Shown here piece after piece: positions 270-64,000 of a stretch of DNA of 64,000 nucleotides (positions are counted from its first letter, which is position 1; each line of letters starts with the position of its first letter). Both the position numbers and the translations under genes were made by a program. The notes below the pieces were generated by a model that searched no databases, was not told where the DNA came from, and saw only the letters and a program-made list of their open reading frames with translations. The DNA is from Eledone cirrhosa (taxonomy: Eukaryota), in the NCBI GenBank assembly GCA_964016885.1, contig OZ024742.1, positions 368,218,001 to 368,282,000 on the forward strand, given 5' to 3'.

Positions 270-270
<1 letters not shown>

Positions 271-322: not shown

Positions 323-325
<3 letters not shown>

Positions 326-570: not shown

Positions 571-677
571 TAAGGCTTTTCAGGCAACTCTAAGAGAATC
601 GAAAGCGACCGTCCCGCCACACGTTGGAGAGAGAAGTCACAACGTGACTAGGACAGTAACCAATGGCCTCTGAGGAC

Positions 678-9600: not shown

Positions 9601-11230
9601 AAACACACACTGACACACACTGATATACACACTGACACACACACTGACACACATACTGGCACACACTGACACACACTGACACACACTGACACACACTGAC
9701 ACACACTGACACACACTGACATACAGTGACACACACTGACATAAACTGACACACACACTGACACACACACTGGCACACACTGACACACACTGACACACAC
9801 TGACACACACTGACACACACTGACACACACTGACACACATTGACACACACTGACACACACACTGACACACACACTGACACATACACTGACACACACTGAC
9901 ACAAACTGACACACACTGACACACACTGAAACACACACTGACACACACTGATATACACACTGACACACACACTGACACACACTGACACACACTGACACAC
10001 ACTGACACACACTGACACACACTGACACACACTGACACACACACTGACACATACACTGACACACACTGACACACACTGACACACACTGACACACACTGAC
10101 ACACACAGAAACACACACTGACACACACTGATATACACACTGACACACACACTGACACACATACTGGCACACACTGACACACACTGACACACACTGACAC
10201 ACACTAACACACACTGACACACACTGACATACACTGACACACACACTGACACACACACTGGCACACACTGACACACACTGACACACACTGACACACACTG
10301 ACACACACTGACACACACACTGACACACACACTGGCACACACTGACACACACACTGACACACACACTGGCACACACTGACACACACTGACACACACTGAC
10401 ACACACTCACACACACTGACACACACTGACACACACTGACATACACTGACACAAACACTGACACACACACTGGCACACACACTGGCACACACTGACACAC
10501 ACTGACACACACTGACACACACTGACACACACTGACACACACTGACACACACTGACACACACTCACACACACTGACACACACTGACACAGACTGACATAC
10601 ACTGACACACACACTGACACACACACTGGCACACACTGACACACACTGACACACACTGACACACACTGACACACACTGACACACACTGACACACACTGAC
10701 ACACACTGACACACACTGACATACACTGACACACACACTGACACACACTGACACACACACTGACACACACACACTGGCACACACTGACACACACTGACAC
10801 ACACTGAGACACAATGACACACACTGGCACACACTGACACACACTGACACACACACTGACACACACACACTGGCACACACTGACACACACTGACACACAC
10901 TGACACACACTGACACACATATTGATACACACACTGACACTCACACTGACACACACTGACACACACACTGACACACACTGACACACACTGGCACACACAC
11001 TGGCACACACTGACACACACACTTACACACACACTGACACACACTGACACACATATTGATACACACACTGACACACACACTGACACACACTGACACACAC
11101 ACTGACACACACTGACACACACACTGACACACACACTGACACACACACACTGACACACACACTGGCACACACACTGATACACACACTGACACACACACTG
11201 GCACACACACTGACATACACTGATACACAC
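678..11230. repeat. Large simple satellite, ~10-bp unit (CACACACTGA)n with 12/14-bp variants
   Basis: Continuous tandem acacactgac units over ~10.5 kb. The overlapping VSVCQC ORFs are translations of the repeat. Confidence 0.97.
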
Positions 11231-11509
11231 ACACACACATATATACACATATATATACACATATATACACACACATACACGCACATACACACACGCACAC
11301 ACACACACAAACACATACATCCATATATATATGTGTGTGTTTGTGTGTGTGTATGTGCGTGTGTGTATGTGCGTGTTTGTAATATGTCTATGTGTGTGTG
11401 TGTGTGTGTATACACACACGTTGATGTACACACAGATACTCACACATTTACGCACCGACACACACATATACATACACAAACATGCATACGGACATAAACA
11501 CAAACACAT

Positions 11510-11547
<38 letters not shown>

Positions 11548-11600
11548 GCTCACGCCCACACATACACAGGCACAAACAGAAACACGCACAAAATCATACA
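11231..11600. repeat. Compound (CA)n/(TA)n/(TG)n microsatellite
   Basis: Direct inspection. CA and TG blocks face each other. Confidence 0.85.
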
Positions 11601-11990
11601 CATACAGAGAGAAAGAGGCGTGGGGTATAGGGTGGTGGAGGGGAGATGGTGAGAGAAGGGGTAGGGGGAGATGAAGGGGCAGGGGAGAGTGGGAGAGAGG
11701 AGGGAAATGGTGAGATAGGGGGAGGAACCTCATACTCCTCCCATCAGATCGATTAATCTAGGTGTAGAGTGTTCCACAGTTTCTTTTGTTCCAGATAATG
11801 ATGGTTCCATTAGCCACCAAATACCATGGAGATAAAACTAAGATTTAAAGGTTAACAACTAAATCAAGCCAGCTCCACATTTTTACTTCAAACACTCCAG
11901 ATGAACATTAAAGCATAACAAAATAAAAACAATATCTATTAATATGAAAATAATATAAAAATAAAGCAATGTTGTTATAGAACCACTAAT

Positions 11991-12105
11991 GCGTGTGGCC
12001 AAGTGGTTAGGGTGTTGAATTTAAGATCATAAGGTCGTAGCTTCGATTCATCGACTGGGCGACATGTTGTGTTCTTCAATAAGTAAGACGCTTCATTTCA
12101 AGTTA
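11991..12105 (+). mobile_element. tRNA-derived SINE 5' head (degenerate)
   Basis: A-box TGGCCAAGTGG at 11996-12006 and B-box-like (G)CTTCGATTC at 12040-12049, followed by a TGTGTTCTT...AAGACGCTTCATTTCA central-domain-like motif. Confidence 0.65.
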
Positions 12106-36200: not shown

Positions 36201-36664
36201 GCCCCTACGTAGTCCCAGCGTGCATCTAGGATACCATTCCAGTCCCCCACTAATAGCAAGGAGCGGGACGTCCCTAGAAAAGTCTCCAGACGATGGAAGA
36301 AGTCCGGCCGCATTGACCCGAAAGGGCCGTAGGCGGCTACCAACCTAAACGCTCCGCCTTTACTACTGCCAAGGTCCAGAACCACTAGTCGACCCTCCGG
36401 GTCCAAATGTACCATCTGTGTTGCGAGACCCAGATGTTTTTGCAGCAGAACGACAACTCCACCCCCACCTCCGGGCTGACAGAGAGATGCGTGCATCTCA
36501 AAGTCATCAAAGGTGGGGGCCAGCTGTCGCACGTTGCTGATCCGGGCCTCGCAAATAACCATCACATCTATACGTTGTGACCTGAGGTCATTTAGAAGCA
36601 TTGCTTGCTTCCAAGTTGAGCCCAGGCCACGCGCATTTAAACAGCCTACTCTTAGCATAGCCAT
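33227..36664 (-). CDS. ORF2 of copy D: AP-endonuclease + reverse transcriptase + C-terminal CCHC zinc finger (~1145 aa)
   Basis: ATG at 36664 (MAMLRVGCLNARGL). EN motifs GDWN, YLDRF and SDH; RT motifs LDQSKAFDRV, QGCPLS and YADD; zinc finger CPRCVCDEETVAHALVHC. Confidence 0.95.
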   Translation of the reverse strand: MAMLRVGCLNARGLGSTWKQAMLLNDLRSQRIDVMVICEARISNVRQLAPTFDDFEMHASLCQPGGGGGVVVLLQKHLGLATQMVHLDPEGRLVVLDLGSSKGGAFRLVAAYGPFGSMRPDFFHRLETFLGTSRSLLLVGDWNGILDARWDYVGACPDREGCNSLKGLIGRFDLADRYRLDFPTAPTWTWANRSGSSRSYLDRFLVRIKDKDFLSCPKMRMVGYSDHKLVTCMVNLDRTHRQGPGYWKLNLSLPASRAYRNRISTLVKERLTGAIVNSRWWVSLKREIRVVSIEFSKVLAADRNRKERELIDRVEEAIRSGDVARVLASRTALSQFFDAKHEGCVVRSKIRALGNEGTKAVSWARVTEANSGTKSTIRSLRDLDGRAILEPKQMCDAFQRHFARLFGKGGEPVGNVDFGPYLDGLPRLSDREAKSCEEPISAAEIEDVLSQCGKRKSPGLDGLPYELYLAMPDLFPDLLEAVYCNWQQNGRIPCTVTKGVVTLVRKDENKGDEISNFRPITLLNTELQILAKVLAKRLALIVGNLVGDAQTCAIPSRSIHDNLHLMRYIIERVGNEPGFGGALINLDQSKAFDRVDHGYLDAVLAAAGFGPVFRGWITAMHSSRICSRVKVNGYLSEPFKIARSIRQGCPLSSLLYVLTLEPLLRKLELLQGIPLEPGLRKAVSAYADDVTVMVSTASEIEAVGTLLEEYENFTGAKLNRDKSIGLQLGTWRGRPMPSDGVVGRWTEGPVKLLGVWFGPDLQVEKNWAEVTNRVFALTQKWASCKLSLKGRAEVANTYIASVIYYRLTVVPCPRETLTKMERALFQFLWKRRAPMVRRSICCQHPSKGGLGMPWLMMRKHALRLRHLYVFLTGQPVWASFVRRTFPRLVSLTELQSWVKQRPRKLGAWHNECAQALTALWQADPVISGDSTATFYRGLVRSRCDDALGEALDMEEDELASLFGRTFSPGPMDNFQKSLAWQCYRGALPVRERLYRHGRPGRDPAKKICPRCVCDEETVAHALVHCSGVADLWGYVEQLLSRVGPIRLTTESIVMIKPPPPFKDEAEAVFLCVIAMAKEVVWWTRLKGLRSGTFLSGQQLVRFFRYHFGRRIRMEREVLHPSRFYERWVKVARMARVNGPSLYIRL

Positions 36665-36688
36665 GTTGGTGGTGAAGAGAAAAGGCAC

Positions 36689-38479
36689 TTACCTCTCTGC
36701 GTCCCGGGTATCGGGCTGCACAATTTCCATTAGGGTGGGGGATGGGTTGTTGGGTGGGGTGGTGGTTTGTGGAAGTGTGGGGGCATCAGTGTGTTGTGTG
36801 GTTGGGGAGCTTGGAGTTGTGTGGGTGTTTGGGGAGGGGGTGGGATAGTTTTTTAGGAGGACGCGGTTAATGGGCCCGACGCAGGGGGGACCCACGTCCT
36901 CTTTAAAATTGTTTTTTAAAGTTTTATAGGTGTCCTGTGGGGCCTTAATCATTTTGAGGTGGGGGAAATCCCCTGCCTGGGTGAAGTTAGGCCCTTGTGT
37001 TTTTATTAGATTGTTGTTGTACACAATGTTTAACAGTTTTTTGTTTCTTGTATTTATGTATGTGTATGCATGTTTTTGTTTTTGTGTGGTGTTTTTTGTT
37101 TGCTGTTGTTGTGAGCTCTTTTGTGTTGGTGTCAGTGTTATGTTTTGGGGAGGGTTTTTTTTCATTTGTGTGTCTGAGGTGTGTTTTCTTTTTTTTCTTT
37201 TGATTGTGTGGAAGTGCTCCTCCTCGTCTGACGACGAACTAGGGTCATCTTCCGCGTTGGAGGGGAGGGGTATATTTTCGGGTTGTGTTTGCGGTACGGG
37301 TGTTTTGGAAATTGTTTTTGTTTTTTGAGTGGAGGGGATGGGTTGGACATTGTTTTGTTTTGGTTTGAGCTGTGGTGGTTGTTTTTGTAGTGGTAGTTGT
37401 GGTGATTGTGTTGGTTGTGCAGTTGTTGGTGGTGTAGGCAGGATTGGGGTTTTCTTATTAAGTTGGGGACAGACAGCCCTCAGGTGACCTCTGGTTCCGC
37501 AGAGGTAACACGAGGGCCGTCTACCCTCAACGGTAATGTTGATGAAGGTTAGATCATCCAGTATGACGCGTTCAGGGATCTGGGCGATCCTTTCGGGCCT
37601 CATTTGAACTACAAGTTCGAGGCTCGTTCCACTGAACGCGTCACCCGATGCCTTTCCCATGGACACCAGCATGTCATCCTCCAGGTCCAGAAAACCTGTC
37701 AAAACCCACCATATGTCCATAATCGGCAGGATGGTGTGGATTTTTATTTTTTGTGTTCTTCTACCCATGTACGTAGGGTAGAAGGTGTATGCGGTGGATG
37801 TGATTGGTTTGATGGACAGTTTCACTGCTGTGTCCCTGTCCTTCATGAGAATGGATAGACTCCCGTAGAGTCTATCCTTCTGAATGAAGGTGATGTCCTT
37901 CATGACGTCTTTTAAAACCAGCTCTATCTCGCTCTGTGATGGTTGAGCTGGTTTTTTACTTTTGTTCGAGATTGTCCTAAACATGACCGTGTTTAGGAGT
38001 CTCTGGCTTTTTAGTTCCGGGGGGGAATGGATTGTGAATGAACCATTTTCCCCGTACACTATATATTTTTTCGCATCCGCCAGTAGCTCCTTCGCTTTTG
38101 TTATATCTACTGGCAGATAGTCGAGGGTTTTCCTTGTCGTCTCGGCGAAGGAGAAATTTTGTTTGTTTGTGTTGTTGTTGTCGTTGGTGGTGTTGTTGTT
38201 ATCATTGTTGTTGTTGTCACCGTTATTGGTCTTGTTGTTGTTATTGTTATTGTTATTGGTGTTGTTTTCGTCCGTCGCATTGTTGTTGTTGTTGCTGTTG
38301 CTGCTGGTTCTTTGGGTTGTTGCCATGGCAACGTCAAGTTGTCGGTTAACAGGTGGAGAGAATTCTTCCTCTGGCTGACCTATCTTCTTGACCTCTGCTA
38401 CTGTGACAGTGGCAGGGGGAAGCTGTAAGTTCATCTTCCCCTTTCCTCCTTCGAATTTTGGTGAAGAAGCTTCGGCCAT
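36689..38479 (-). CDS. ORF1 of copy D: nucleic-acid-binding gag-like protein (596 aa)
   Basis: CYLCGTRGHLRAVC zinc knuckle, Asn-rich and Pro/Thr/Gln-rich low-complexity tracts, and a basic KRKKRK patch. Sits directly upstream of ORF2. Confidence 0.92.
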   Translation of the reverse strand: MAEASSPKFEGGKGKMNLQLPPATVTVAEVKKIGQPEEEFSPPVNRQLDVAMATTQRTSSNSNNNNNATDENNTNNNNNNNNKTNNGDNNNNDNNNTTNDNNNTNKQNFSFAETTRKTLDYLPVDITKAKELLADAKKYIVYGENGSFTIHSPPELKSQRLLNTVMFRTISNKSKKPAQPSQSEIELVLKDVMKDITFIQKDRLYGSLSILMKDRDTAVKLSIKPITSTAYTFYPTYMGRRTQKIKIHTILPIMDIWWVLTGFLDLEDDMLVSMGKASGDAFSGTSLELVVQMRPERIAQIPERVILDDLTFINITVEGRRPSCYLCGTRGHLRAVCPQLNKKTPILPTPPTTAQPTQSPQLPLQKQPPQLKPKQNNVQPIPSTQKTKTISKTPVPQTQPENIPLPSNAEDDPSSSSDEEEHFHTIKRKKRKHTSDTQMKKNPPQNITLTPTQKSSQQQQTKNTTQKQKHAYTYINTRNKKLLNIVYNNNLIKTQGPNFTQAGDFPHLKMIKAPQDTYKTLKNNFKEDVGPPCVGPINRVLLKNYPTPSPNTHTTPSSPTTQHTDAPTLPQTTTPPNNPSPTLMEIVQPDTRDAER

Positions 38480-47944: not shown

Positions 47945-48720
<776 letters not shown>

Positions 48721-48756
48721 GAATTCTCAAAGTCATTAAATATAGATAGATAGATA

Positions 48757-49040
48757 TCTTTCTTTATTTGCCACAGGGGCGTACAAAAATGGGACATTAC
48801 ACGACGTGACGGTGGGGCCTTTACATAAAAATCATATAACTTTCACATTAATAAATAACAATAAACTATATATAATAAAATAACAATTGAAATCCCCAAT
48901 AGGGGGGAACGTTACTGCAGGGTTGTTTTACACCCCGTGGAGAGAACAACCCTCAACACCAGGAACAAGTTTTGTAGGTGTTCCTGTCTTCCCTCTGTTC
49001 ATCTTCCTCAACCTACAGGTTTATATACAGAGAAGGCCCA
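48757..49040 (-). mobile_element. Tx1-clade copy I (3' UTR plus last ~9 codons of ORF2; another family)
   Basis: GPSLYINL* then a 3' UTR ending GCCCCTGTGGCAAATAAAG. Short GATA tracts at 48743-48756 and 49041-49058. Confidence 0.85.
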
Positions 49041-49404
49041 GATAGATAGACAGATAGACCTGCAACTCTAATATTTACACACAACCATACACTAACATAG
49101 ACAGGTTGTACTTCCTGTCTCAGACCTGGTGCTACAACAAGTTGGCTTTCCAGTAACAATGTCCTGGCTTCTAACACTACATTTAAAAATAGTTCCTCTT
49201 TTAATATTGAGTCAGTTTTATGCTGAATATTTAGGAAATTAACTAGAAATAAATTACCAAAATATTTATTCTCCTTCAAATGAATTCTCAAAGTCATTAA
49301 TTAACGTAAACTATAGGCTTTCTCTTATGCAAACCATTAATTTTAGCAAGCCAGAAATTTGCCAGTTTGTCTGGTCCGTATATAGTCCTGGTATGTTATA
49401 ACAA

Positions 49405-49485
49405 TCTTTCATCCTTACGAGGTCGATAAAATAAAGTACCAGTAATGTACTGGGTAATTTCTGGCCTTGTGCCAATAGTAGAAAC
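49405..49485 (+). mobile_element. SINE body/3' fragment
   Basis: CTTTCATCCTTACGAGGTCGATAAAATAAAGTACCAG, similar to 12555-12620. Confidence 0.55.
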
Positions 49486-49558
49486 AGTTATAACAATCTT
49501 GGACTCCAACATTTAAATACATTTACCACTATTGCTGTCATTATTGATGACAAAAGCT

Positions 49559-49606
<48 letters not shown>

Positions 49607-49613
<7 letters not shown>

Positions 49614-50254
49614 GGAGAAAATGAAACGAAATTTTATTTCCCACTCTTAGTACGGCTGTTACTTAAATATAAGTATGTACACGTACATACATATATGTAT
49701 ACAGACGTACAGTAGTATGTATATATATATACATACATGCAGACATATATATATATGTACGTACGGATTCACCGAACATCTATTATAATGCTCGGTGTGT
49801 TTGTAAACAAACATCCCGTATTAAGCCGTACATACTTATATTTAAGTAACAGCCGTACTAAGAGTGGGAAATGAAATTTCGTTTCATTTTTTCCGTTTAT
49901 CGTTTTCGGTGCACCCGGCCGATTAACCCACTCAATATGCAAATTGGGCTACTCAACCGTTAATATGCATAAGGTAAGTATATACGTTCAACAATCTGGC
50001 AGGAAGGTATACGTTGCTGACGATAGCTAATAAGCTTGAAACTGGTACAGCGTTCCTTTGTCAGTGTTGAACAAACGAGCAACGATGGTTGCTGGACACT
50101 ACGGCTTAATATGGGATGTTTGTTTACAAACACACCGAGCATTGTAATAAATGTTCGGTGAATCCCTACGTACATATATATGTGTGCATGTATGTATATA
50201 TATATATACATACTACTGTACGTCTGTATACATATATGTATGTACGTGTACATA

Positions 50255-50260
<6 letters not shown>
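49607..50260. mobile_element. Penelope pLTR/retrozyme-like element family Y copy 2
   Basis: The forward unit 49831-50260 starts and ends with CATACTTATA. 49607-49830 is an inverted copy spanning the unit's end-to-start junction. Confidence 0.78.
50011..50053 (+). ncRNA. Minimal type I hammerhead ribozyme
   Basis: ACGTTG-CTGACGA-tAGCT aata AGCTt-GAAAC TG GT-A-CAGCGT. Stem I changes relative to the 48322 copy keep pairing (A-T to T.G). Confidence 0.8.
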
Positions 50261-50325
<65 letters not shown>

Positions 50326-50429
50326 ATAGTACTCAAATATCAGGAGACTTAGCTGCCAAAAATCAGTGAAAATCTGAAAAAAAACTTTGACTCACCATAG
50401 TAAGATACATTGTTGCTTTTGAAGTTTGT

Positions 50430-50615
50430 TGATGGATCTCCGTCGGTTACGACGATGAATGTTCCATTTGTTCGATCAACAGCCAGCCTGCTCGTTAAAT
50501 TAACGTGTATCAGACTTAGTACAGATATATGTACAGTTAACGTAGTTCTGGGGGTACTCAGAGTGACAAGAGGGGCTAACAAATTACTGTATACCCTTTA
50601 AATTATAAGTACAGT
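50430..50615 (-). mobile_element. Degenerate SINE fragment (octopod-type, from recall)
   Basis: GATCAAC...CAGCCTGCTCGTTAAATTAACGTG...TTAACGTAGTTCTGGGGG resembles an abundant Octopus SINE as I recall it. Not database-verified. Confidence 0.5.
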
Positions 50616-51179
50616 CCATCTTGTTCCATACTGTAAGGGGTTGAGCCCTTCACATACACTCTACATTCGTTGTCAATCATGTTTAATGTACAAAGAAAAT
50701 TGTCGCAGGAATGTTACCAATTAAAATAACATTTCACCGGAGATAGATTAACAAAACTGGATGGGGGGGGGGGGGCTGGAATAAGATAGGGGAGGGTGGT
50801 GTAAGAGGGGGAGAGGTGGTAACATTCTGAAATTATAATAAGTGGAGTGACGGACAATTGGAGACCTGAGAGTTGTGACATTCTCTTAATTCGAGAGAAG
50901 TCTGTTCCCTTTCTAGAACAACTGAAAAATTCATCATCGAAACTGATGGAGGCTTACTCTATCTGTTTAGTGTTCTTTACACTATTATTTAGTCCAATAA
51001 ACAATATCGATGACATATACCTATTGATATCCAGATGAGAAAAACTGACCTTCTAATATGGAAGTTTCTCACTGATGTGTAAACAAAGTTTTACAACTCT
51101 TAAGACCAGCTTAGAATTACTGAAGCTGATATATAGCAAATATTGAATGTACTGCTACACTGTGTTACTGTATTGGCTG

Positions 51180-51340
51180 TGTTGAATGTTGGGTGTGTTG
51201 GGTGTGTTGGGTGTTGGGTGTGTTGGGTGTTAGGTAGGTGTGTTGTGTGTTAGGTGTGTTAGGTGTGTTAGGTGTTGGGTGTGTTAGGTGTGTTGGGTGT
51301 GTTCTGTGTTGGGTGGGTTAGGTGTGTGTGTGTGTGTGTT
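51180..51340. repeat. Degenerate (GTGTTGG/GTGTTAG)n simple repeat
   Basis: Direct inspection. Confidence 0.8.
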
Positions 51341-51389
51341 GACAGTTCAAGGCGACAACAAACGGAGGTACAAAAGTCTTAGTTTCATG

Positions 51390-52145
51390 CTTTATATTGA
51401 AAAAAGGAAAGAAAGTTGGACGTGTCGGGCTTAAGTCCTTCTTCAGGAGTACAAATAGAGAAGGGGTGAGAATGGAGAAACAGAGAGAAGGTCCAGTAAA
51501 GACACAAAAATATCGAAAATGAAGATGGTAAACAAGGTAGTCATGGTAACGAGTAGAAACGCAAAGGGGAGCTCGTGTGTGTGTGTATATGTATGGTTAT
51601 ATGTGTGAGTGTAAGTGATAGTTTAAATGTGTGTGATAGTAAAGGTATATTGTGTAAAGTAACAAAGATAGTGAGTGTATGTGTATATCGATGTGGTAGT
51701 GGACATGTATGTGGAAGTGAATGTAAGTTTGAATGTGTGTACTGTGTATGTGTGTTTGTATAAAGTATATGTAGTATAGCGTATGTCCGTGAGAAGAGTG
51801 GATTAGTATGTGTGAGTGTATGATAAATTATAACGTGTGTATATATGTTGAAGTTTATAATGTGTACGTGAAAAGTATCTAACTGTGATATGTAAGGGTG
51901 TATGTATTAACGAGTATGTGTCATAGGATAAAGGACGTAGTATAGTGTGTGATAGAGAGTATATGACAGAGAAGATTAAAGATGCGTGGCGCATTAAGGT
52001 GAGGGGGAAGAAAAGTTTGTAAGGAGAAAATAAGTTGCTGTTCTCTCCGCCAGCGGGATTTAGATGTTCCGGCACGATGTGCGAGCTCGAAGACACAGAG
52101 GTTACGTGTGGAGTGGCCCGCGGATCAAAAATATCAGGAGATCCG
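51390..52145 (-). mobile_element. Penelope-like element 3' relic (GIY-YIG C-terminal fragment + pLTR with degenerate hammerhead)
   Basis: Minus-strand translation of ~52135-51990 gives SAGHSTRNLCVFELAH...SRWRREQQLIFSLQTFLP, resembling the PLE GIY-YIG tail. Downstream CTGAAGAAGGACTTAAGCCCGACACGTC (51446-51419) is a hammerhead with one core mutation. Confidence 0.65.
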
Positions 52146-52151
52146 ACATAT

Positions 52152-52172
52152 GTCTCTCTCCCTCTCTCTATA

Positions 52173-52209
<37 letters not shown>

Positions 52210-52271
52210 CTTTCTCTATCTATCTATCTCTCTCTTTCTCTATCTATCTATCTCTCTCTCTCTCTCTCTCC

Positions 52272-52335
<64 letters not shown>
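52152..52335. repeat. (TCTA)n/(TC)n/(TA)n compound microsatellite
   Basis: Direct inspection. Confidence 0.9.
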
Positions 52336-52337
<2 letters not shown>

Positions 52338-52614
52338 TAAACGGACGGTAGTCCGTTTAGTAATATTGTTGTGGTCGTGTTTTCGTTGGCAATCGTCTGT
52401 TTACGACAGTACAGCGCGGCTCTACTTTATTTAACTGAGATAAAACTTATATGAGCATGAACAGTAGATCATTACGCATCTTTTGGCTTAAAAATCTAGA
52501 AATTTGGTCCAGCGGGAAAAAGTTTATAATCAAAGTTTGCTGATAAATCTTGTGTTCAAGTGAGTGAGTAGTAAGCGTGACGCTAGGGGAGGTAATCCAG
52601 AAATGACGACGTTT

Positions 52615-53135
52615 GGAATATGTATATTTGTGTACGTCGCCATATATGTATGTATATGTGTATATGTATATTTGTGTATGTCGCAATATATGTATGTATG
52701 TGTGTATATGTATATTTGTGTACGTCGCCATATATGTATGTATGTGTGTATATGTATATTTGTGTATGTCGCAATATATGTATGTGTGTATATGTATATT
52801 TGTGTACGTCGCCATATATGTATGTATGTATGTGTGTGTATGTATATTTGTGTATGTCGCCATATATGTATGTATGTGTATATGTATATTTGTGTACGTC
52901 GCCATATATGTTTGTATGTATGTGTGTATATGTATATTTGTGTACGTCGCCATATATGTATGTATGTATGTATGTGTATATGTATATTTGTGTACGTCGC
53001 CATATATGCAGTATGTATGTGTGTATATGTATATTTGTTTATGTCGCGATATATGTATGTATGTATGTGTGTATGTGTGTATATGTATATTTGTGTATGT
53101 CGCCATATATGTGTGTATGTATGTATGTGTGTATC
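52615..53135. repeat. Minisatellite, variable ~36-48 bp unit TATGTATATTTGTGTAYGTCGCCATA(TATG)n, about 12 copies
   Basis: Recurrent GTCGCCATA core separated by variable TATG/TG tracts. Confidence 0.85.
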
Positions 53136-53983
53136 GGGCTCACATACATTCTCTGTGCGTGATTTGGCTCAGCTCAGCCAATCAGCGCCAGTAGAAGAGG
53201 ATGTATCCCTACGCGTTCGGAGGGAGAAATAGCCCGCAAAGATTTGAGGACGCTATCACTTCCAGGCTAGACCGTGTTAGGGTAAACAACACTTGTTCTT
53301 TTGCTCCGTAAGCACAAACAATATGTAACGGCAAAACATTACCTACGAGCCTGACCAAACGTATTTTCTCTTGTAATCTTAATTGAATTATTTCATTATT
53401 CTTGGCATGCCAGCTTAATTCACTTCTTAACCTTTATTAATAAATAATGTAAAAAGAAGCTAAAATTCGTTGTCGATATTCCTATCGTATCTTTCTACCA
53501 AACCTGGTTCCTCGTGGCAACAACACAACAACTCTCTAAATATTCTTCTCCGCTAAATTCGAATTTATACCTAAACCAAATTGGTGACAATATATCTACA
53601 CCAAATGTGTGACCCTCGACGATTAAGTATGAAAACGCAGCCTATTTGAATTCGCCAGTCGTTTTAACGGAAATGTGGAGTGGCTTAACATTTGGAATAT
53701 TCGAATCGGGTTTCTAGACTCGCTTAGCGTAAGTCCATAAAATTCATAATATTCCATTTGTTGAAGCACGCGACCTACACAATATTTCTGTTATAACTTT
53801 CATGGTAACACAAGTAACTCACGCATACAGACGAACACAAAAATACTACACAAAAGAAAGAGTTTTTTCGACGTCTAACAAAAAGTTTCTCTTTTGGATT
53901 GAAAATTATTATTGCGAGCATAGTTTGATAAAAACAAAAAAAAAAAGAATTAAAAAAAAAAGAATTTCTCTGGATATAGAATT

Positions 53984-55699
53984 TTGCTCGGCTTATTCAG
54001 TTTTTCCATGGCACATAAATGGAGTATTTCCATTTCGAATCAATACCTTTCACTAAAATCGGGCAATTGGACTGATCAAATTCACATTCATGCCAGTTTT
54101 TACAAATCCAAAAAACGAAATTATCCTATTTCCAATCAGAAATATAGAACGCGCGCGTTAATCTTATCATTACTCATAATCGGTTGTGTCGAATTAAATC
54201 CTGGACCTGAATTTGAATTCAATGAGACTGACAAAGATCAAAACATTGATAAACAGAATGAAAAACGGAGAAAAACTGCAATTAGGAATAGGGAGTACAG
54301 ACAACGGAAAGCTGCAGAAATAAGAGAAAAAAGACAATCAGACGAAGCAAAATTTAAAAATAAGGCATGGCAAAAAGCATATAGACTGAGAAGAGGCGAT
54401 GAGGGCAAAAGTCAGGAGGCATCGTATCAAAAAGTGCGCAGACTGAGGGCAGGTGATGAGGGCAAAAATCAGCATGCATTGAATCAAAAAGAGCACAGAG
54501 TGAGAGCAGGCGATGAGGGCAAAAGTCAACAGGCATTGTATCAAAAAGCACACAGATTGAGAACAGGAGAAGAAGGAAAAGAAAAAGATGCCATATATTT
54601 TTCACATTATTATTTTACAAATGCACGGTTGATACAACAAAAACACAAATGTTTGTACAGAAAAAAACGAATTCAACGATTTAAAGACATTCGCATGCAA
54701 AGGGAAATCATGTTACACAAATTCACAAAATCATATTTGGCTTCGAAAAAAGAAAAACCAAAAAATCGGACACAGTATAGGAAGAAATTCAAGCAGGGCC
54801 TTGAAAAAGTTTCCAAAATCTACAGAGAAGCACAGGGAATTCGAAATATCATGTTTAATGAATTGAAAAAAACAATGGCTTCAGTTTATGCACACATCAA
54901 ATTAGCTAAGAAGGAGGGGTTGACTGCATACTGGGGGGAAATATTTTACCATACTTTCACAAATGAACACTTTCTATTCCCAAAAAGTACAGTTGATTAT
55001 TTTCCTCTAACAGAACTTGAAAACCACAATTTTCTGACTGATGACTGTCTAACAAATGAGTGCAGGTGTAAAGATGGTGATGAGCCAAGTGAGGGAAGTG
55101 CACAAGGAGAGGGAGGTGGGCAAAGTGAGAAAGGTGCACAAAGAGGGGGGAATGAGCCAAGTGAGAAAGGTGCACAAAGAGGGGGAGATGAGCCAAGTGA
55201 GGGAGGTGCACAAGGAGAGGGAGGTGAGCAAAGAGAGAAATGTGCACAAAGAGGGGGGGATGAGCCAAGTGAGACAGGTGCACAAAGAGGGGGAGATGAG
55301 CCAAGTGAGGAAGGCAAGCAAAGAGGGGGAGATGAGCCAAGTGAGGGAGGTGCACAAAGTGGGGGGGATGAGCCAAGTGAGAAATGTCCACAAAGAGGGG
55401 TAGATGAGCCAACTGATGGAGGTGAGCAAAGTGAGGCAGGTGCACAAAAAGAGGGGGGTGAGCAAAGTGACCAGAAAGATTTTGATGGCAGAAAATGTAC
55501 AGAACTTCTGACTTTGGCTAGATTGTGCAAATTTGGTCCCCCATCAAATTGCACAGATCCCACTGCACGTCTAAAGCTAGCTAAACGAATGCACAAGGCC
55601 ATACATGAACTTTCACCTGATTTGACTGTGTCCCAAATTCGGAAAAAATGGAAATCTTTGAGCAGTGTAAAGGATTCCATAGGGACATCTATTGCATAG
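53984..55699 (+). CDS. N-terminal segment of the Helitron polyprotein (2A-like motif, basic region, 21-aa and 13-aa repeats)
   Basis: LLIIGCVELNPGP at ~54170-54208, RLRAGDEGK repeats and GGDEPSE repeats. The likely ATG is at 54008. Confidence 0.7.
   Translation: MLGLFSFSMAHKWSISISNQYLSLKSGNWTDQIHIHASFYKSKKRNYPISNQKYRTRALILSLLIIGCVELNPGPEFEFNETDKDQNIDKQNEKRRKTAIRNREYRQRKAAEIREKRQSDEAKFKNKAWQKAYRLRRGDEGKSQEASYQKVRRLRAGDEGKNQHALNQKEHRVRAGDEGKSQQALYQKAHRLRTGEEGKEKDAIYFSHYYFTNARLIQQKHKCLYRKKRIQRFKDIRMQREIMLHKFTKSYLASKKEKPKNRTQYRKKFKQGLEKVSKIYREAQGIRNIMFNELKKTMASVYAHIKLAKKEGLTAYWGEIFYHTFTNEHFLFPKSTVDYFPLTELENHNFLTDDCLTNECRCKDGDEPSEGSAQGEGGGQSEKGAQRGGNEPSEKGAQRGGDEPSEGGAQGEGGEQREKCAQRGGDEPSETGAQRGGDEPSEEGKQRGGDEPSEGGAQSGGDEPSEKCPQRGVDEPTDGGEQSEAGAQKEGGEQSDQKDFDGRKCTELLTLARLCKFGPPSNCTDPTARLKLAKRMHKAIHELSPDLTVSQIRKKWKSLSSVKDSIGTSIA
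55075..55470 (+). repeat. Coding minisatellite, 39-bp unit (GGDEPSExGAQRG)
   Basis: Recurrent GATGAGCCAAGTGAG...GCACAAAGAGGGGG. Confidence 0.85.
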
Positions 55700-56580
55700 G
55701 ACAGTCTGACTGCACAAATGGACTTGAACTGATTCGAAGTATGGCTCCTCACTCTCTTCGCATCCGTACAATTCTGAGATGTGTGTACAAAGTGAGATCA
55801 GTCTGTGTCTGGCTAGACTCCTATGACATTTCAATCTTGGAAGGAAATTGGTCAATGTTTGATGATCTAGTAAATCCCCAAAACATGTCCAACAATCTGC
55901 TAAGCCGTTTGAATGAGATAGTGGAAAATGAAAATGAGAGCTTGCATTCAGAATCCTCAATCATGGCCAATTTTGCATCCATTATCAAACATTTTAATAA
56001 AGAGATTCAAAAAATGAAAATCAACTCCTGTGACATTTGCAAACAACGAGAATTAGATGCTAAACTCAAAGTCTGGGAGGATTGGAGCCCTTTGACAAAT
56101 CCCTATCTCCTGGAAACCATTCAACAAAACTACTCTCTGCCATGTACGATTTGCTCTACATGTAGAAATAGTCTTGTCAAAAAGTCGATACCATCATTGG
56201 CTTCAATCAATGGCCTAGAAGTGGTCAAAATTCCAAATGTGTTGTCAAAGTTGAACATGTATGAGCAGATTTTGATCCAAATGGCCAATTGCTTCATCAA
56301 TGTCATTAAATTGTCACCCTATCGTTTCAAAGGTGCACCATCACATCTAGTAGCTGCTATTAAAGGAATAGCAACTCACATGCCACTACCAGTAGAAAAC
56401 ACAATCAATCATGTAATGAAAAAACTTCCAAAATGATGCATTTGAAATAATTGTTGATAGTCTTCCAACTAAAAGGGACACAATTTGGCGATCGCTAGTG
56501 AATATGCAAAATGTCTTTGATGCCTTGGAGTGGCTGAAAAACAACAATGACATTTACAATGACATTTTGATAGACAGAAC
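55648..56580 (+). pseudogene. Cys-rich / DUF6570-like segment of the Helitron polyprotein
   Basis: CDIC...CSTC...PSLASINGL...LNMYEQILI...KGIATHMPLP, then after a frameshift SLPTK...WRSLVNMQNVFDALEWLKNNN. Confidence 0.75.
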
Positions 56581-58546
56581 CACAAATTTAGAGGACATTG
56601 TTACATGCACTGGTGAAAATGTTTCCATCAATTTTCCACACATTCTCACACAAACTGGTGCTGAAACAGTCTATGAACACCATACTGTACAGCAAATCAA
56701 GCCTGCACTCCCAAATCAAAAGGAACTTCAACTGTTTCGCATGAAACGAGTTGAAGGTACTCTTCTTCCGGACAATGATCCAAACCTGGATCTGATGTGC
56801 TTCCCCCACTTCTTCCCTAACGGAAAATTTGGAATGATGCACATGAACAGACCCCATGGTAGAGTAAAGCCCTACATGTTCATCAGAAACAGACTCAGAC
56901 ATGAGGAACCCCGGTTTCGTAGAGACATTCAGTACATTCTCTACAATTTGGACAAGGCTGACAAAAGAGCACTAGATTCTGGCATTTATGCCGTAATGAA
57001 ATCACTCAAAAGTCCAAAATTGACACTTGCTCAATTTTATAAAAGATTGGAAGACAATGATGAACAATTGGAAAGTGGTTTGTCAATGATGATGGCGAAT
57101 GTTCGTGGAACAAAGCCATTTTGGGAACGCAAGTGCTCCGACTTGAATGCCATAGATGAGAAATTCGGTCCTGCCCATTTGTTTATCACTCTTTCATGTG
57201 CTGAATACTTTTGGCCAGGCTTAAGGGAATTTTTGGAAAAACTCAATAAAGACATTGCAAATGTTGAAACAAAGCCGATAGGGAATCTCTGTGCAAATGA
57301 TGCTGTGGCTGTCAGTGAGTACTTTCACCATCGTTTTAGTGCTGTTTTTCATGATGTAATTTTAAATAAAAAAGGCCCATTTAGGGAAATTATTCATTAC
57401 TTTTGGCGACTCGAGTATCAACAACGTGGTGCCCCTCACATTCACCTTAAAGCCTGGGTTCGGGACAGTGTAATTTTTGACAAAGATCCTAAAGAAAAAA
57501 TCAAGCAATTTATTGAACGCTGCATTACTTGCCGGCTACCATCCCCTGTGGCCAGCCCAAACTTGGCAAATCTCGTTAGACGGTTCCTAGTCCATACTTG
57601 TGGCAAAGCATACTGGAGAATAGTGAGGAGAGGGAAAAGTTTTCGTAAAAAATGCCGTTTTGGCTTTGCATGTGCAGTGGGGCCATTTCGGTTTTTCTCA
57701 GTTTCTGAAAGTATCAAATCACGAAAAAATGGTAATTGGACAAAAAAACTGTACCAATTGGAAAGAAAAGAATCAGAAAAGTACATAAATGACTACAATC
57801 CATGTTTACTTCTAGCCTGGCAAGCAAATATAGATGTGCAATACATTGGTGAGAATAGTATGATTTTGAATAGATATGTCACCTGCTATCAGACTAAAGC
57901 TGAAAAAAATGAGGCTGAGGGAGTGTGGGCGAATCTGGATCATTCCAAAACAAAATATGGGAAATACAAAAGTGCTGGACTGCAATTGCTTGGGAAAAGG
58001 GATACAGGAGGGTATGAAGTTGCTGACAAACTTTTGGGGCATCATTTTTACGGGTCATCAGATCATGTTATTTGGGTAGGTGCAGACATTCCCAGTAGGC
58101 GCGGCCGCAGATTGAAATCTCAAAATGATCTCGATGAACTGAGTGAACACTCAATGGACTTGTTCTACGAGAACATGGTGGAAACTTTTTACAAAAACCG
58201 GCCAAAATTCCTGGAAGATTCCTCCTTATATGAAGTTGGCAGAAAATATGAGAGGACACAAAAAAAACCTGTTGACAAAGATGTGGCTACAAAAATGAAA
58301 TTGCTCAATGACAAGGGGTATTTTCATAGTGTAAAACAGCGGGTAGTTAAAGCACCGAATATACAGCTCAAAAATGACACAAAAGAACGTTATTACCACA
58401 ATCTTCTAATGCTGTTCAAACCCTGGCGCGATGAGGACAAAGATTTATTGGGGGGCTGCAAAACATTTGAAGAGTCCTTTCATCTGGGTGCAAACAATTT
58501 GCCTAATATGGTGAATTTTCAAAATGTGAGGAAAAAAAATCACTGA
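56498..58546 (+). CDS. HUH Rep (rolling-circle initiator) domain
   Basis: Motif I LFITLSCAE, motif II FWRLEYQQRGAPHIH, motif III YVTCYQTK; also CRFGF, INDYNP and LFKPWRDE. Confidence 0.93.
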   Translation: MNMQNVFDALEWLKNNNDIYNDILIDRTTNLEDIVTCTGENVSINFPHILTQTGAETVYEHHTVQQIKPALPNQKELQLFRMKRVEGTLLPDNDPNLDLMCFPHFFPNGKFGMMHMNRPHGRVKPYMFIRNRLRHEEPRFRRDIQYILYNLDKADKRALDSGIYAVMKSLKSPKLTLAQFYKRLEDNDEQLESGLSMMMANVRGTKPFWERKCSDLNAIDEKFGPAHLFITLSCAEYFWPGLREFLEKLNKDIANVETKPIGNLCANDAVAVSEYFHHRFSAVFHDVILNKKGPFREIIHYFWRLEYQQRGAPHIHLKAWVRDSVIFDKDPKEKIKQFIERCITCRLPSPVASPNLANLVRRFLVHTCGKAYWRIVRRGKSFRKKCRFGFACAVGPFRFFSVSESIKSRKNGNWTKKLYQLERKESEKYINDYNPCLLLAWQANIDVQYIGENSMILNRYVTCYQTKAEKNEAEGVWANLDHSKTKYGKYKSAGLQLLGKRDTGGYEVADKLLGHHFYGSSDHVIWVGADIPSRRGRRLKSQNDLDELSEHSMDLFYENMVETFYKNRPKFLEDSSLYEVGRKYERTQKKPVDKDVATKMKLLNDKGYFHSVKQRVVKAPNIQLKNDTKERYYHNLLMLFKPWRDEDKDLLGGCKTFEESFHLGANNLPNMVNFQNVRKKNH

Positions 58547-58556
58547 TGCAGTTGAG

Positions 58557-60537
58557 ATGGGGAAGAGGTTGGAGAAGGAGGGAGAGGTCGGAGAAGGACG
58601 GAGAGAAGAGGGGGAGAAGGAGGCAAGAGATGAGGCTGGTATTGATGTTCCCCAAATTTTAGATGTAGGTGAAACTGCTCTACAGACAAAAGAAACACAG
58701 CTTAATACAGATCAAATATCCATATACAATCTAATTGTATCAGCAATTGAAAAACAGGAATTGCATTGGAATTCGGAAAAACCACTACCAAGGTGCAGAT
58801 GTGATGATTGCCCACAATTTCTCAAATTTGTCTCTGGTGTAGGAGGTACAGGGAAAAGTTTTCTCATTGATATAATTTCTGACAAAGTTACTCAAATTTG
58901 TTGCAAGAGAAATGGGGCCCCAGTAGTCATTTGTGCACCAACTGGTATGGCTGCTTTCCAAATCAAGGGGACTACTTTGCACAGGCTCTTGAAACTCCCA
59001 GTCCAACATGGAAAGTCACCATCATATAGCGAATTAGAAAGTGATGAACTCAAAATTTTGCGATCCACTCTAGAGGGTGTCCGTCTGATAATTATCGATG
59101 AAATAAGTATGGTCAGTCATCTGATGTTGGCATTTATCCATAGGCGTCTAGATGAGATTTTTGGGGACCAGAGTCAAATGACCAGCCCTTTTGGAAAAAT
59201 AAATATTCTGGTTTTTGGCGATCTACTTCAACTTCCACCAGTAAATGAAAAAACACTCTTTTCCAGTATTTCTGCATATGATGCTAAAAGGACTGGTCTG
59301 GGAATAAGTGGGCAGTCACTGTGGAAATTTTTCGACTATGATGAGCTCACTATAAACATGCGGCAAAAAAATGACAGTGAAAACTATTCTGAAATGTTGG
59401 GTCGAATAAGAATAGGATCACCTACAGACATGGACATCAAGACTTTGAGTGAACATTGCCTATTCCCAGATCGCAGGGCAACAATGAGAGAGGCAACTGA
59501 GAAACTAATGCAACTTTGCACATTACCTAGTCAAAAATTTGTCTGTATTTTGCCTGTCAATGAATCTGAAGATGAATTCAATAAGGAAATGCTTAAGCAT
59601 GCCAACATCAGTACAGTTGTAGTTATTGCTGAGGACTCAGGAATGCGCCAGAAAGGTCGTAAAAAAAGTCAAAGTCAAACAAATTTTCCAAACCAAAAAG
59701 GCATCAGACACTGCTGGACTTGAGACTGAATTGCAAGTTGGAGTTGGGGCCAGAGTAATGCTGAGACGAAACATTAATTTGGTGAAGGGGCTATGTAATG
59801 GTGTCATGGGAACAGTGCAAAGCATGGTCAATGGAAAAGATGGGAAAATGGGACAAATCATTGTGGAATTTGATCACATGATAGGCAATGACATTTCAAT
59901 AGAAAAGGTGACTGCAGACTATGAAATCTCTCCTGGTGTGTATGTGACACGAAAACAGTTCCCCCTAAGCCTTGCCTATGCCATCACCATCCATAAATCA
60001 CAGGGAATAAGTGTTGATGGGGTCATTGCTGATCTTGGTCCTCTGTTGTTCGCAGATGGAATGGGCTATGTTGCACTTTCACGAGCTGGGAAACTCTGCA
60101 ATGTCTATTTGATAGATTTTGACCCACGAACCCTGATCATGTGTGACAAATCTGCTTGGGAAGAGTATAACAAATTGCGTTCTACAACAAAATTGCCTCC
60201 ACTTGGACCATGTAGAAATAAACCACCATGCATGGCTTCTGAATCTTGCATGCCAAACAAACGATCATGGCGAATGTTGAATGTGGACAACCCTTCTGAA
60301 TATGCTCCTCCTACCAAAAAACCTAAATTAGCTACAATTTCCATGCTCACTCCCATGATTAGACTACAAAATAAGGAAAATGCCTGTTTTGCCAATTCCA
60401 CACTTCAAGTTATTGCCCAATTGCCCAAACTTTGGGAAACTTTGTTGTCTACCAAATTACTCAGTCCAGTTGTTCAGGAAAAAGCAAATATTGTCAATGA
60501 TTCAAAAGTTGAACTTGCCCAATCTTCACAACATTGA
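58557..60537 (+). pseudogene. PIF1-family SF1B helicase (frameshift ~59665) plus C-terminal USP-like Cys box
   Basis: GVGGTGKS, IIIDEISMV, FGDLLQLPPV, NMRQ, GARVMLRRN, QFPLSLAYAITIHKSQG and YVALSR, then LQNKENACFANSTLQ. Confidence 0.92.
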
Positions 60538-60800
60538 AAATTGGTCAAAATTTGACAAATCTGACTTCAAACCAGATTTGAACAATGTTGGAAATCTTAA
60601 ATTGACACAAATTTTTGCCAATGTTTTTGCCACCTGAGGTAATTACAAGGGGAGGTAATTACGAGTCTCTCTCTATTATCTAATATATTTCAAATTGTAT
60701 TTTTAACTAAATTCATTTATCATAGTCTAATATTTTAAAAATAGGTTAGTGCTCCACGATGATGACCCATGTCCCCGCCATGTGGAGGGGATTCTTAGGA

Positions 60801-60860
60801 GCCATCCAGATATCATGTGACCATTTTTGATTCGCGGTGTCCACATGATATCTGGATGGC
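60801..60860. other. Perfect 19-bp inverted repeat (hairpin) downstream of the Helitron ORF
   Basis: GCCATCCAGATATCATGTG (60801-60819) pairs with CACATGATATCTGGATGGC (60842-60860). Confidence 0.8.
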
Positions 60861-61383
60861 CCTTTATACTAATTAGTCATTTATCTGCATAACAATTATA
60901 CCAGATCATTCTGATTATTGGCTTGAAATCTTTTACAAAATTAGTATAAGCAACTAAGAGGTCATCAATAGAAATAGAATTACTTTTTGAAGTTTTCATG
61001 CACAGCATTTTTTGGGATTTTAAATAAAAGTTAATATCATAATTCTTATTTTGTATACCCACATTGCAGATACAGAGAAACATGACAATCCTATATAAAG
61101 GTCGTAGACAGCAGTATCAGTTTTTATCCGTAACACCATTGAAATGCACAAGTTTCACCAATTCCCTATTATGCACTAATCATCTCAAATGCATCCATGA
61201 TTTACTAGCTTTGTCATTAAGCCAGTTGTCTCAACTAGATTGCAATTATACTCAAAAGAACTTTAAAATGTCAATCACTTGTCAGTAATTCACTATGATC
61301 ATTTAATTATTAGATAGTTGTTGCTTGCATTGCCTTAAAAAATAGTAGACCAGATAGAAAAATGCGTACAGCAAAAAAAAGTA

Positions 61384-62478
61384 ATATTGTTGGAATATAA
61401 ACCTTTAAAAATACAGGACAAGAAACTAAAATAAAACTTTAAAAGAATAGGACAAGAAACTAAGATAAAACTTTAAAGAATTGGACAAGAAATAAAAAAA
61501 TTTACAATAATATTAGTGGCAAAATTTTTTTATTCGTTTCCTGTGCTATGCCCCAGTATCTTCTTGATTAGTGCATAATAATTGCCATGCTCTCATTGTG
61601 CGTTGCCCTTGAGCGGTTGGTTCTGGTTGGGGTTGGTTGGCTGAGCAGTTCTGCTCCGTCAGAATGACCATTGCAAGAAGAATTGGCCGATGCAGCTGCA
61701 GGTCTTCTCCAAGAATGCACTTCTGGTCCCGCAACACCATACGAAGATGGAGAAGACGACCGGGACAAGATGTCGACTCTGACCACCGACTACGGCACCT
61801 CCCTCAAACACCGGTCCTCCCTCCCTCTGTCCCGTCATCCCTCCAGTCCTCCTGCTCCCCCTTCCTGTACCAGAAAGCTGTGGCACACATTCATCTGGAC
61901 TGCCGGACTTGAACTCAAGGACAAGATGAAAGGAGAAGCTGGACGGGTTGGTCAAGATCAAGGATGAGCGGGACGACAAGACCGTCCGCTGCTGCTCAAG
62001 ATCTGTGCTCATGGGCCCATGGGTCCATTCACATTATGCATGACACATGAGGCGTGTCGCCGAATGATGAAATAGGGGTATGGTTATGGCCCAATTGGTG
62101 TTCAAACCAGGATAAAAAATGATCCCCCCGGTCTGACGACGACCTCTGAATATGGACCCCAGAGCCTATGAATGTGGAACTCGATTTTTTACTAATAAAA
62201 ATTTTGCCACTAATATTATTGTAAAATTTTTTATTTCTTGTCCAATTCTTTAAAGTTTTATCTTAGTTTCTTGTCCTATTCTTTTAAAGTTTTATCTTAG
62301 TTTCTTGTCCTATTCTTTTAAAGTTTTATCTTAGTTTCTTGTCCTATTCTTTTAAAGTTTTATCTTAGTTTCTTGTCCTATTCTTTTAAAGTTTTATCTT
62401 AGTTTCTTGTCCTATTCTTTTAAAGTTTTATTTCAGTTTCTTGTCCTGTATTTTTAAAGGTTTATATTCCAACAATAT
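61384..62478. mobile_element. Foldback-like structure: long inverted repeats built from 34-bp tandem units around a GC-rich core
   Basis: The left arm 61384-61534 (3 units) is the reverse complement of the right arm 62194-62478 (7 units; GTTTTATCTTAGTTTCTTGTCCTATTCTTTTAAA). Confidence 0.8.
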
Positions 62479-62486
62479 ATATATAT

Positions 62487-62683
62487 AACGAAGAAGTTGT
62501 GGTAAGGAACCAGATGGACCATAACGCACCAGAGTAGTAGTAGTAGAGTGGGTAATAGGAAAATGTAAGACCCCGACGGCAGAGTTCAAGCCGTTTCGAC
62601 GGCTATTTCTGGACTATATTCTAATTTAGTCCAGAAATAGCCGTCGAAACGGCTTGAGCTCTGCCGTCGGAGTCTTACATTTT

Positions 62684-62688
<5 letters not shown>
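62487..62688. mobile_element. Repeat family X copy 2 with palindrome 62555-62688
   Basis: Homologous to 14907-15102, with ~62-bp arms, 2 mismatches and a ~10-nt loop. Confidence 0.8.
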
Positions 62689-62726
<38 letters not shown>

Positions 62727-63240
62727 ACATGGCGTGCTGCGTGGTTGCAAATGGGTTACATATGAATAAATTTAGTCCGTCATCAGTGATCTTCCAACCT
62801 TCATTGGTATTTCATCGCTTTAAAGACCATATACCTACGGTTGGTGCGAACAACGGCTAAAGAAAGTCGTTGGGACACGGAAATAGGGGGAACGAGCGAG
62901 ACAGTAAACAATCAAAGATGGTAATGCAACGAATCTGCTACTCTCTCTCCTACTTCCTCCCGTTTGACCTATGCGAGATTCTTTCCTCATGCACACTTCG
63001 ACCAGGTCGGATGGTCTTTATTCTCTCTCGTCTACGATTTCACAGAACTTATGTTCATCGATTTCAGGGACTTGACTCCTTCTTCCTCACTTTTCGTTGC
63101 ATTACCATCTTTAGTCCTTCATCACTGATGAAGGACTAAATTTATTCATATATATATATATATATATATATATAATGAGTTGGTGAACCGCACGTACTAC
63201 AAAAAACTACAAAACAATATATATATATATATATATATAT

Positions 63241-64000
63241 AATATTTAGAAACACACAGATACATGCGGACACACACATATATACATGAATGCATCCGCA
63301 CCCAACTGTGAGTTAAGGGTGCCAACTTCACCGATGTTGCTCAATGAATGACTGGGACAGACCAATTCAGTTTGAACCAGACTGAACCAGTATCAGAGTA
63401 AAAATACATTATGAAGAGAGAAGAAACATTTAGATATAATTAGTAATAAAATGTATCATACCTAAACTGTTCCTAAATTCCTCGACTACGTAGTTTCGTG
63501 GCATAAACAAAAACAATATATCAAAGATATAGAGTCCTTGCGAGGTCTGCCGACTTATCAAGAGGATACCTCATTTTACTAGTCTCAAGAACGCGTCTAC
63601 ACGACGTGAGAAAGAATCCCAAAAGGCGGAGGGGGAGATAGTCACGCGATATAACGGTCGAGAAACAGAGCTAAGCCTCTTATAACCACGAAGAAAATAC
63701 CACGGAGGCGGAGGGGGTATTCATATCGAGGCCGTAGAAGAGGTAGTGAAGAAGGCGAGAAGTATGAGTAATGGAAGCTTTCCAGTTGTCCCCACACTTC
63801 AAAGATTGCTCGACCAGAGGGAGTTATTAATATATTTAAAAAACACACAGATACATGCGGACACACACATATATACATGAATGCATCCGCACCCATTAAC
63901 TCACAGTTGGGTGCGGATGCATTCATGTATATATGTGTGTGTCCGCATGTATCTGTGTGTTTCTAAATATATTAATAACTCCCTCTGGTCGAGCAATCTT
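63241..64000. mobile_element. Penelope pLTR/retrozyme-like element family Z (direct terminal repeat + inverted copy running off the window)
   Basis: 63241-63305 recurs at ~63830-63895. 63802-63895 is inverted with respect to 63908-64000. A degenerate hammerhead lies on the minus strand at 63480-63565. Confidence 0.72.

Follow-up and report, generated by a model that had tools for sequence, protein, structure and literature searches.

A selectively constrained candidate 2A/StopGo peptide in the N-terminal part of an HLE2-type Helitron transposase of Eledone cirrhosa

Introduction

Known cases of 2A recoding come from RNA viruses, from retrotransposons, and from a small number of cellular genes. 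Is it also used by rolling-circle DNA transposons? The question is raised by a locus in the 3.0-Gb genome of Eledone cirrhosa, for which a 2A-like ribosomal-skipping motif had been predicted at the N-terminus of a Helitron polyprotein. We analyzed a stretch of 64,000 nt that contains this locus (contig OZ024742.1, positions 368,218,001 to 368,282,000), called "the window" below; all coordinates refer to the window unless a locus name is given.

Results

The motif and its reading frame

The translation of positions 54146-54208 (plus strand) is RTRALILSLLIIGCVELNPGP. Its last eight residues, CVELNPGP (54185-54208, +), are the core, and p11 and p12 are occupied by Gly and Cys, respectively. The peptide matches the published StopGo core, i.e. 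(D/G/C/N)(V/I)ExNPGP (PMC12846837), and it also has the Gly at p11 and the Leu-rich hydrophobic stretch that are characteristic of such peptides, with four Leu and two Ile at positions −19 to −10. The exchange of Asp for Cys at p12, which had been pointed out in the original prediction, is a published functional variant (PMC12846837).

The motif is located in a stop-to-stop frame at 53954-55699 (+), the first ATG of which is at 54008. Skipping is predicted between 54205 and 54206, and the predicted leader peptide (54008-54205, +) has 66 aa, ending with the Gly of the Gly-Pro junction. In a copy of a sister family (L023, family A2) the 2A is in frame within a long ORF of 1903 aa. A search of positions 48000-64000 against Rfam yielded no match at the gathering score.

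Anatomy of the element in the window

Downstream of the motif, the frames match DUF6570, Helitron_like_N, PIF1, Pif1_2B, and a weak remnant of UCH, and therefore the assignment to Helitrons holds. Translation, frame, and Pfam matches place the motif in the first part of a Helitron Rep-helicase gene, as had been predicted. The term "polyprotein", however, does not apply to the window copy, which is split into five frames. In comparison with the longest sister frame it has four frameshifts and ends inside UCH, and it is therefore a dead copy.

On the plus strand, the element begins with TC, preceded by an A and followed by a 10-bp hairpin (52335-52360; arms at 52337-52346 and 52351-52360). A subtype-specific 5′-untranslated region (52618-53981) stands in place of the start codons of the sister subtype; it consists of a 44-bp tandem array (52618-53128) and a segment that is absent from this sister subtype, A1b. 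The segment at 53135-53981 is found only in the subtype of the window and is, judged by contig depth, partly far more repeated than the transposase gene; it is possibly another element that inserted in the 5′ region. The predicted post-skip N-terminal region (54206-55699) is basic, contains 57-bp repeats (54383-54581) and 36-bp repeats (55079-55431), has no match in Pfam, and ends at a frameshift. It is followed by a second frame, which encodes the beginning of DUF6570, a marker of HLE2 (55621-56436; Pfam E 2e-8), by the Rep (HUH endonuclease) frame (56420-58546; Helitron_like_N E 2e-25), in which we take 57413-57445 to be the HUH-type motif, by the PIF1 helicase frame (58530-59723; Pfam E 7e-26), and by a frame with the C-terminal part of the helicase and the start of the truncated UCH (59623-60537; UCH E 0.009). 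UCH is complete in the sister families (E 2e-10 and 6e-10). A long 3′ subterminal inverted repeat spans 61384-62478, with arms at about 61384-61529 and 62197-62478, and the terminal CTAG is missing in the window copy.

The minus strand of 22252-47227 contains stacked copies of non-LTR retrotransposons (APE, RT, and zf-RVT), including one apparently intact pair of ORF1 and ORF2 (36689-38479 and 33227-36688). Just past the truncated 3′ end of the Helitron, a near-perfect palindrome with 66-bp arms (62555-62688) has no Rfam match at the gathering score. Positions 1-12000 are a strongly skewed repetitive region, with a GC skew of about −0.6, an AT skew of about +0.55, and long open frames on the minus strand.

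Copies and sister families in the genome

A DNA search, in which 40 of 319 candidates were scored, revealed 16 near-identical copies of family A1 and the sister family A2, with 81% nucleotide identity over the 5′ part. Of the 16 A1 copies, 12 have the strict core in frame; it is disrupted by a frameshift in two and altered by a single substitution in each of the other two. For A2, the peptide is exact in all 16 short copies that were fetched and in both long copies that were examined. The back-translated pattern G-C-(V/I)-E-x-N-P-G-P has 46 matches in the genome, all with the element's own nucleotide string. The reversed control of this pattern has no match in the 3.0 Gb, and neither has the pattern G-G-(V/I)-E-x-N-P-G-P.

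The pattern G-D-(V/I)-E-x-N-P-G-P has 14 matches in the genome, which stem from two other, decayed repeat families (L041-L054 and L075-L082) with Asp-type motifs and a PHD finger after the 2A. These are probably 5′ modules of non-LTR retrotransposons; a reverse transcriptase in them is not confirmed by Pfam. They were considered as in-genome donors of the window motif and were rejected as direct donors because their likeness to the window peptide is limited to the core.

Family B has 54% identity in Rep and intact frames of 2230-2245 aa. At four intact 10-kb loci of this family, no NPGP is present in any frame, either upstream of the ORF or inside it, and therefore the signal is dispensable in close relatives.

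Both long A2 copies have a common in-frame TAA in the helicase (L023:7862-7864 and L024:7843-7845), and therefore the assembly yielded no 2A-bearing copy that is fully intact. The short A2 derivatives (~3.6 kb; L055-L061 and L065-L073) are fusions of the 3′ end with a part that extends from the 5′ end through leader and 2A and over 85-97 further codons; the frame in L055 has 221 codons. These derivatives are ~99% identical, which, together with the TAA in the long copies, means that either the mobilising copy escaped our search or ribosomes read through the stop.

Classification of the element

The combination of Rep (HUH) and a PIF1 helicase identifies the element as Helitron-like. DUF6570, here located upstream of Rep, is a marker of the HLE2 group, whose subgroups c/d are enriched in UCH (PMC11417382). 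The ends depart from the HLE2 type, which has short terminal inverted repeats and inserts between two T: the base before the 5′ TC is an A in all 26 distinct flanks, and at the 3′ end of complete copies a T comes after CTAG in all 19 flanks. The element thus has the 5′ TC, the 3′ CTRR, and the insertion between A and T of HLE1, but neither the short 3′ hairpin before CTRR nor an HLE1-type transposase; it has an inverted repeat with 190-bp arms and the HLE2 markers. In A2, the 3′ inverted repeat has 190-nt arms that are 96% complementary. In the 5′ hairpin, a paired G/C is swapped between A1 and A2, with equal predicted energies of −10.2 kcal/mol.

No match to the APE endonuclease (Exo_endo_phos) was found in P0002, P0003, and P0004, the ORFs of which end in UCH, and therefore the element is not a Helentron (HLE2 subgroup b) in the strict sense. 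The transposase is only 23-28% identical to the most distant Helitron matches in this genome, which would represent HLE1. We classify the element as HLE2-type, a label that is taken from the domain markers.

The HLE2 subgroups c/d and the proto-Helentron/HLE2-reverse elements described with HELIANO (PMC11417382) have DUF6570, Rep, PIF1, and UCH, as found here; the 5′ stem-loop and the 3′ CTAG are shared with proto-Helentrons. Unlike the proto-Helentron/HLE2 elements of that paper, the elements studied here have a 5′ TC, insert between A and T as HLE1 does, and have a 190-bp subterminal 3′ inverted repeat instead of a short hairpin; in addition, the UCH of family B is in the same frame as RepHel. 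In families A and B, a transposase of the HLE2 type (DUF6570, UCH) goes together with ends of the HLE1 type (A before TC, T after CTAG) and with a 5′ hairpin. This mixture is seen in the window (52335-52360), at the 3′ ends of L055/L062, and in family B (L021/L074), and it is close, albeit not identical, to proto-Helentrons.

Selection on the motif and on the leader

Comparison of A2 (L023) with A1 (L027) revealed a block of 37 codons, Tyr104-Asp140, with 11 synonymous and no non-synonymous changes; 11 of the 12 base changes are at third positions. This protein-invariant block corresponds to 54122-54232 (+) in the window. For 50 codons of the leader, compared between A1b and A2, 3 synonymous and 20 non-synonymous changes were counted, equivalent to a dN/dS of ~1.2. 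The difference between block and leader (11:0 versus 3:20), estimated from the one pair of diverged families A1 and A2, is significant (Fisher p 1.3e-6). It is also significant when the analysis is preset to 30 residues plus the Pro (10 versus 1, against 3 versus 19 for the leader; p 3e-5).

The constraint starts 28 residues upstream of the Gly, and the nine residues from the Pro onwards are also invariant. About 28 residues is close to the length that is held in the ribosome exit tunnel. The remaining N-terminal region has dN/dS values of 0.24-0.45 and contains two further stretches of identity, of 35 and 46 aa, and therefore the length of the block is not unique. Its distinctive feature is its position bordering a neutral leader, i.e. 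the part of the leader upstream of 54122. The indels that flank the block on either side, 3 and 18 nt long, preserve the reading frame.

The length of the leader differs between the 5′ variants (66, 80, or 131 aa), but the residues that follow the predicted skip site do not. The ~66-aa leader of the original prediction thus fits the window copy, but not the sister subtype (80 aa) or the sister family (131 aa). Because its length is not fixed at 66 aa and its evolution is neutral, the leader is unlikely to be a functional second protein. An avoidance of stop codons in the leader is not significant (P 0.35, simulation). Taken together, the predicted identity as a class-A 2A/StopGo peptide is supported at the level of sequence, and purifying selection acts on exactly the motif stretch.

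Homologues in other genomes

The strict core is present in 7 of 180 homologous proteins, in all cases upstream of DUF6570, compared with ~0.002 expected; the 180 proteins were pooled from several homologue searches, the third of which was seeded with a motif-bearing protein and thus favours motif-bearing matches. Restriction to proteins with at least 450 residues upstream of DUF6570 gives 7 of 90. A further 134 homologues from a 50%-representative search, many of which are fragments, contain no core. In total, an N-terminal GD(V/I)ExNPGP was found in 7 of 314 outside homologues, so that the core does recur in homologues, as the original prediction had implied. The seven proteins (P0027, P0028, P0072, P0076, P0098, P0105, and P0160) are all Helitron transposases according to Pfam, and in P0098 and P0105 a PHD finger follows straight after the 2A.

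In a quick tree of 36 hand-picked rows, the nine 2A-bearing rows require six changes, at least four of them on strong branches. Another quick tree was calculated after seven short rows had been dropped; both trees were built without named reference Helitrons. A single clade of 2A-Helitrons was rejected for the 36 hand-picked rows (AU p 4e-55; quick tree, unrooted). Repeated gain of the 2A in Helitrons would be the simplest reading. Losses and truncated gene calls could also explain the pattern, and many of the rows without motif may be truncated. Similar motifs are present in several separate Helitron lineages.

Related peptides in published reporter assays

Natural peptides with Cys at p12 had activities of ~90% or more in lysate (PMC12846837). 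Supplement file 3 of PMC13405545 contains 11 LLIIG peptides, the source proteins of which are absent from the structure table of that study. Five of them skip, and the six others comprise two with fall-off and reduced protein, three with reduced protein only, and one that is inert; an effect of some kind was thus reported for 10 of 11. Grouped by p12, skipping was found for four of five peptides with Gly and for one of six with Asp. Two peptides ending LLIIGGVELNPGP, which differ from the window peptide at one residue over the last 13, both skip, and so does a Cys variant ending LLIIRCIELNPGP (PMC13405545). As the results for the analogues are mixed (skipping, fall-off, and reduced abundance), clean co-translational release is only one possible outcome for the window peptide.

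The mixture is also compatible with an alternative that we regard as unlikely, yet as the most serious one, namely that the Leu-rich helix stalls the ribosome and lowers abundance or ends translation without productive skipping, so that the peptide is a brake on the transposase and no split occurs. In PMC13405545, three to six upstream Leu are linked to reduced abundance, and Leu is tied to both the skipping and the reduction classes; the window peptide, with its four upstream Leu, falls within this range. Reduced abundance was reported there for 70% of the ORF1p and 59% of the ORF2p peptides of retrotransposons that were tested, and the five LLIIG peptides with reduced protein (three of 11 without skipping, two of 11 with fall-off) point in the same direction. 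The same holds for the coral protein XP_044182051.1, in which the 2A occupies residues 42-62 and the structure resembles a PIF1 helicase and a tegument-like DUB (supplement file 4 of PMC13405545): it is likely a Helentron, judged from these structural matches, and its peptide was classified as fall-off only. A neutral leader would fit a brake equally well. In contrast, the analogues with a residue other than Asp at p12 mostly skip (four of five with Gly, and the one Cys row; PMC13405545), and the invariance of the nine residues from the Pro onwards fits a defined new N-terminus.

Discussion

The window peptide appears to be a genuine 2A-type signal that selection maintains in a transposon of the rolling-circle DNA class. 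Our preferred reading, which we consider probable from the sequences and from analogy with known systems, is that purifying selection preserves a class-A 2A/StopGo signal in the N-terminal part of an HLE2-type transposase, and that this signal acts as StopGo.

The block could be conserved for another reason, i.e. as a structural or membrane-targeting helix or as the start of an exon behind a splice acceptor, with NPGP as a relic of an old capture. The leader upstream of the block indeed looks non-coding by its dN/dS and by the lack of significant stop avoidance, a pyrimidine-rich stretch ending in CAG at 54130-54139 is a putative splice acceptor, and 2A-like peptides can double as signal sequences (PMC4981915). 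However, the E, N, P, G, and P of the core and the Gly at p11 are all kept, although a plain helix would not need them, and the maximal 19-residue hydropathy is only ~1.35. Two synonymous changes upstream of the putative acceptor and the flanking indels of 3 and 18 nt argue against a splice site, and the location of the changes at third positions argues against a constraint at the DNA or RNA level. Contigs from four runs of one study, the kind of which is unrecorded, showed deletion joints and no clear GT-AG intron when aligned to the window; such contigs are uninformative on transcription. Overall, we regard conservation for another reason as quite improbable.

A chance resemblance in a degenerate copy is very improbable and is largely refuted already: the window copy is dead and the selection test includes only two diverged families, but the block has no non-synonymous change in 37 codons, the number of outside homologues with the core far exceeds expectation, with the core at the same end, and the control pattern had no match.

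The selected 2A-type signal has its closest parallels in retrotransposons. In APE-type non-LTR elements (Ingi, L1Tc, CR1, Crack, L2, and Rex1; PMC3708506), a class-A motif is located ~40-80 aa into one long ORF, as it is here, and its distribution among close relatives is patchy, as it is in the Helitrons. The layout of a 2A followed by a PHD finger (PMC3708506) recurs in the Helitron homologues P0098 and P0105. In contrast to the non-LTR elements of that study, the motif is carried here by a rolling-circle DNA transposon, which encodes Rep, PIF1, and UCH but neither reverse transcriptase nor APE, and the window family has Cys at p12 and no PHD finger after the motif.

Viral StopGo peptides (PMC12846837, with the L-rich upstream motifs 2/6; class A of PMC12338488) have the exact core, the Gly at p11, and the aliphatic upstream stretch in common with the window peptide. 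Unlike them (PMC12846837), the upstream hexamer in the window ends with I-I-G and not with (A/S/C)-G, and the 2A separates a neutral leader, not two functional viral proteins, from the downstream product.

The coral protein XP_044182051.1 (PMC13405545) also has its 2A ~60 aa from the start, but it differs in the Asp at p12, in the remaining peptide, and in the domain layout. It was filed by the authors as a DNA helicase, and the term "helitron" is absent from the main text and the four supplements of PMC13405545 that were searched. The outside homologues P0027, P0028, and P0160, which belong to two clades, start alike, with Trp-Arg ... Ile-Gly in the first 14 residues; this resembles the coral leader in the preprint supplement and is absent from A1 and A2.

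"Helitron" was likewise absent from the main texts of the 2A papers searched and from their searched supplements, and "2A-like" has no occurrence in the HELIANO paper (PMC11417382). More generally, a search of the full-text literature, for some queries among the best 30-40 of several hundred matches and with Repbase reports outside its scope, yielded no link between 2A and Helitrons, Helentrons, or DNA transposons. The original prediction that 2A is not well described for rolling-circle transposons is in accord with this literature. What was found thus seems to be a recoding signal of a known kind in a class of mobile element for which it is new, and it recurs across lineages.

How would the signal work? 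The window copy is dead, and the following mechanism thus applies to its source family. In active copies, Gly-Pro would be the point at which the ribosome stalls and releases a short unconstrained leader, the sequence of which would be immaterial. Ribosomes that resume would produce a Rep-helicase-UCH protein starting with the Pro, whereas a partial drop-off of ribosomes would cap transposase output. The N-terminus of the transposase would thus be fixed against a changing 5′ end. The 2A may have been captured from non-LTR retrotransposons, because two outside homologues have the same module of 2A and PHD finger as non-LTR elements. More tentatively, and with somewhat less than even confidence, we propose that StopGo is a recurrent, as yet undescribed feature of rolling-circle DNA transposons: HLE2 lineages may repeatedly have taken 2A from non-LTR elements, which would provide one fixed transposase N-terminus, whatever the start codon or the captured 5′ region, and a throttled dose.

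This would have several consequences. Automatic gene models of such Helitrons are predicted to have a wrong N-terminus, and the window peptide is a naturally occurring Cys variant of 2A that could be included in reporter panels. If 2A is under selection in DNA transposons, these would be the third class of mobile elements with 2A, and Helitrons would have a translational control point that is new to the literature searched. A neutral leader beside a frozen 2A is, moreover, a natural experiment on the question whether 2As in cellular genes and transposons serve to make two proteins or to regulate one, and the data favour the regulation of one protein over the making of two.
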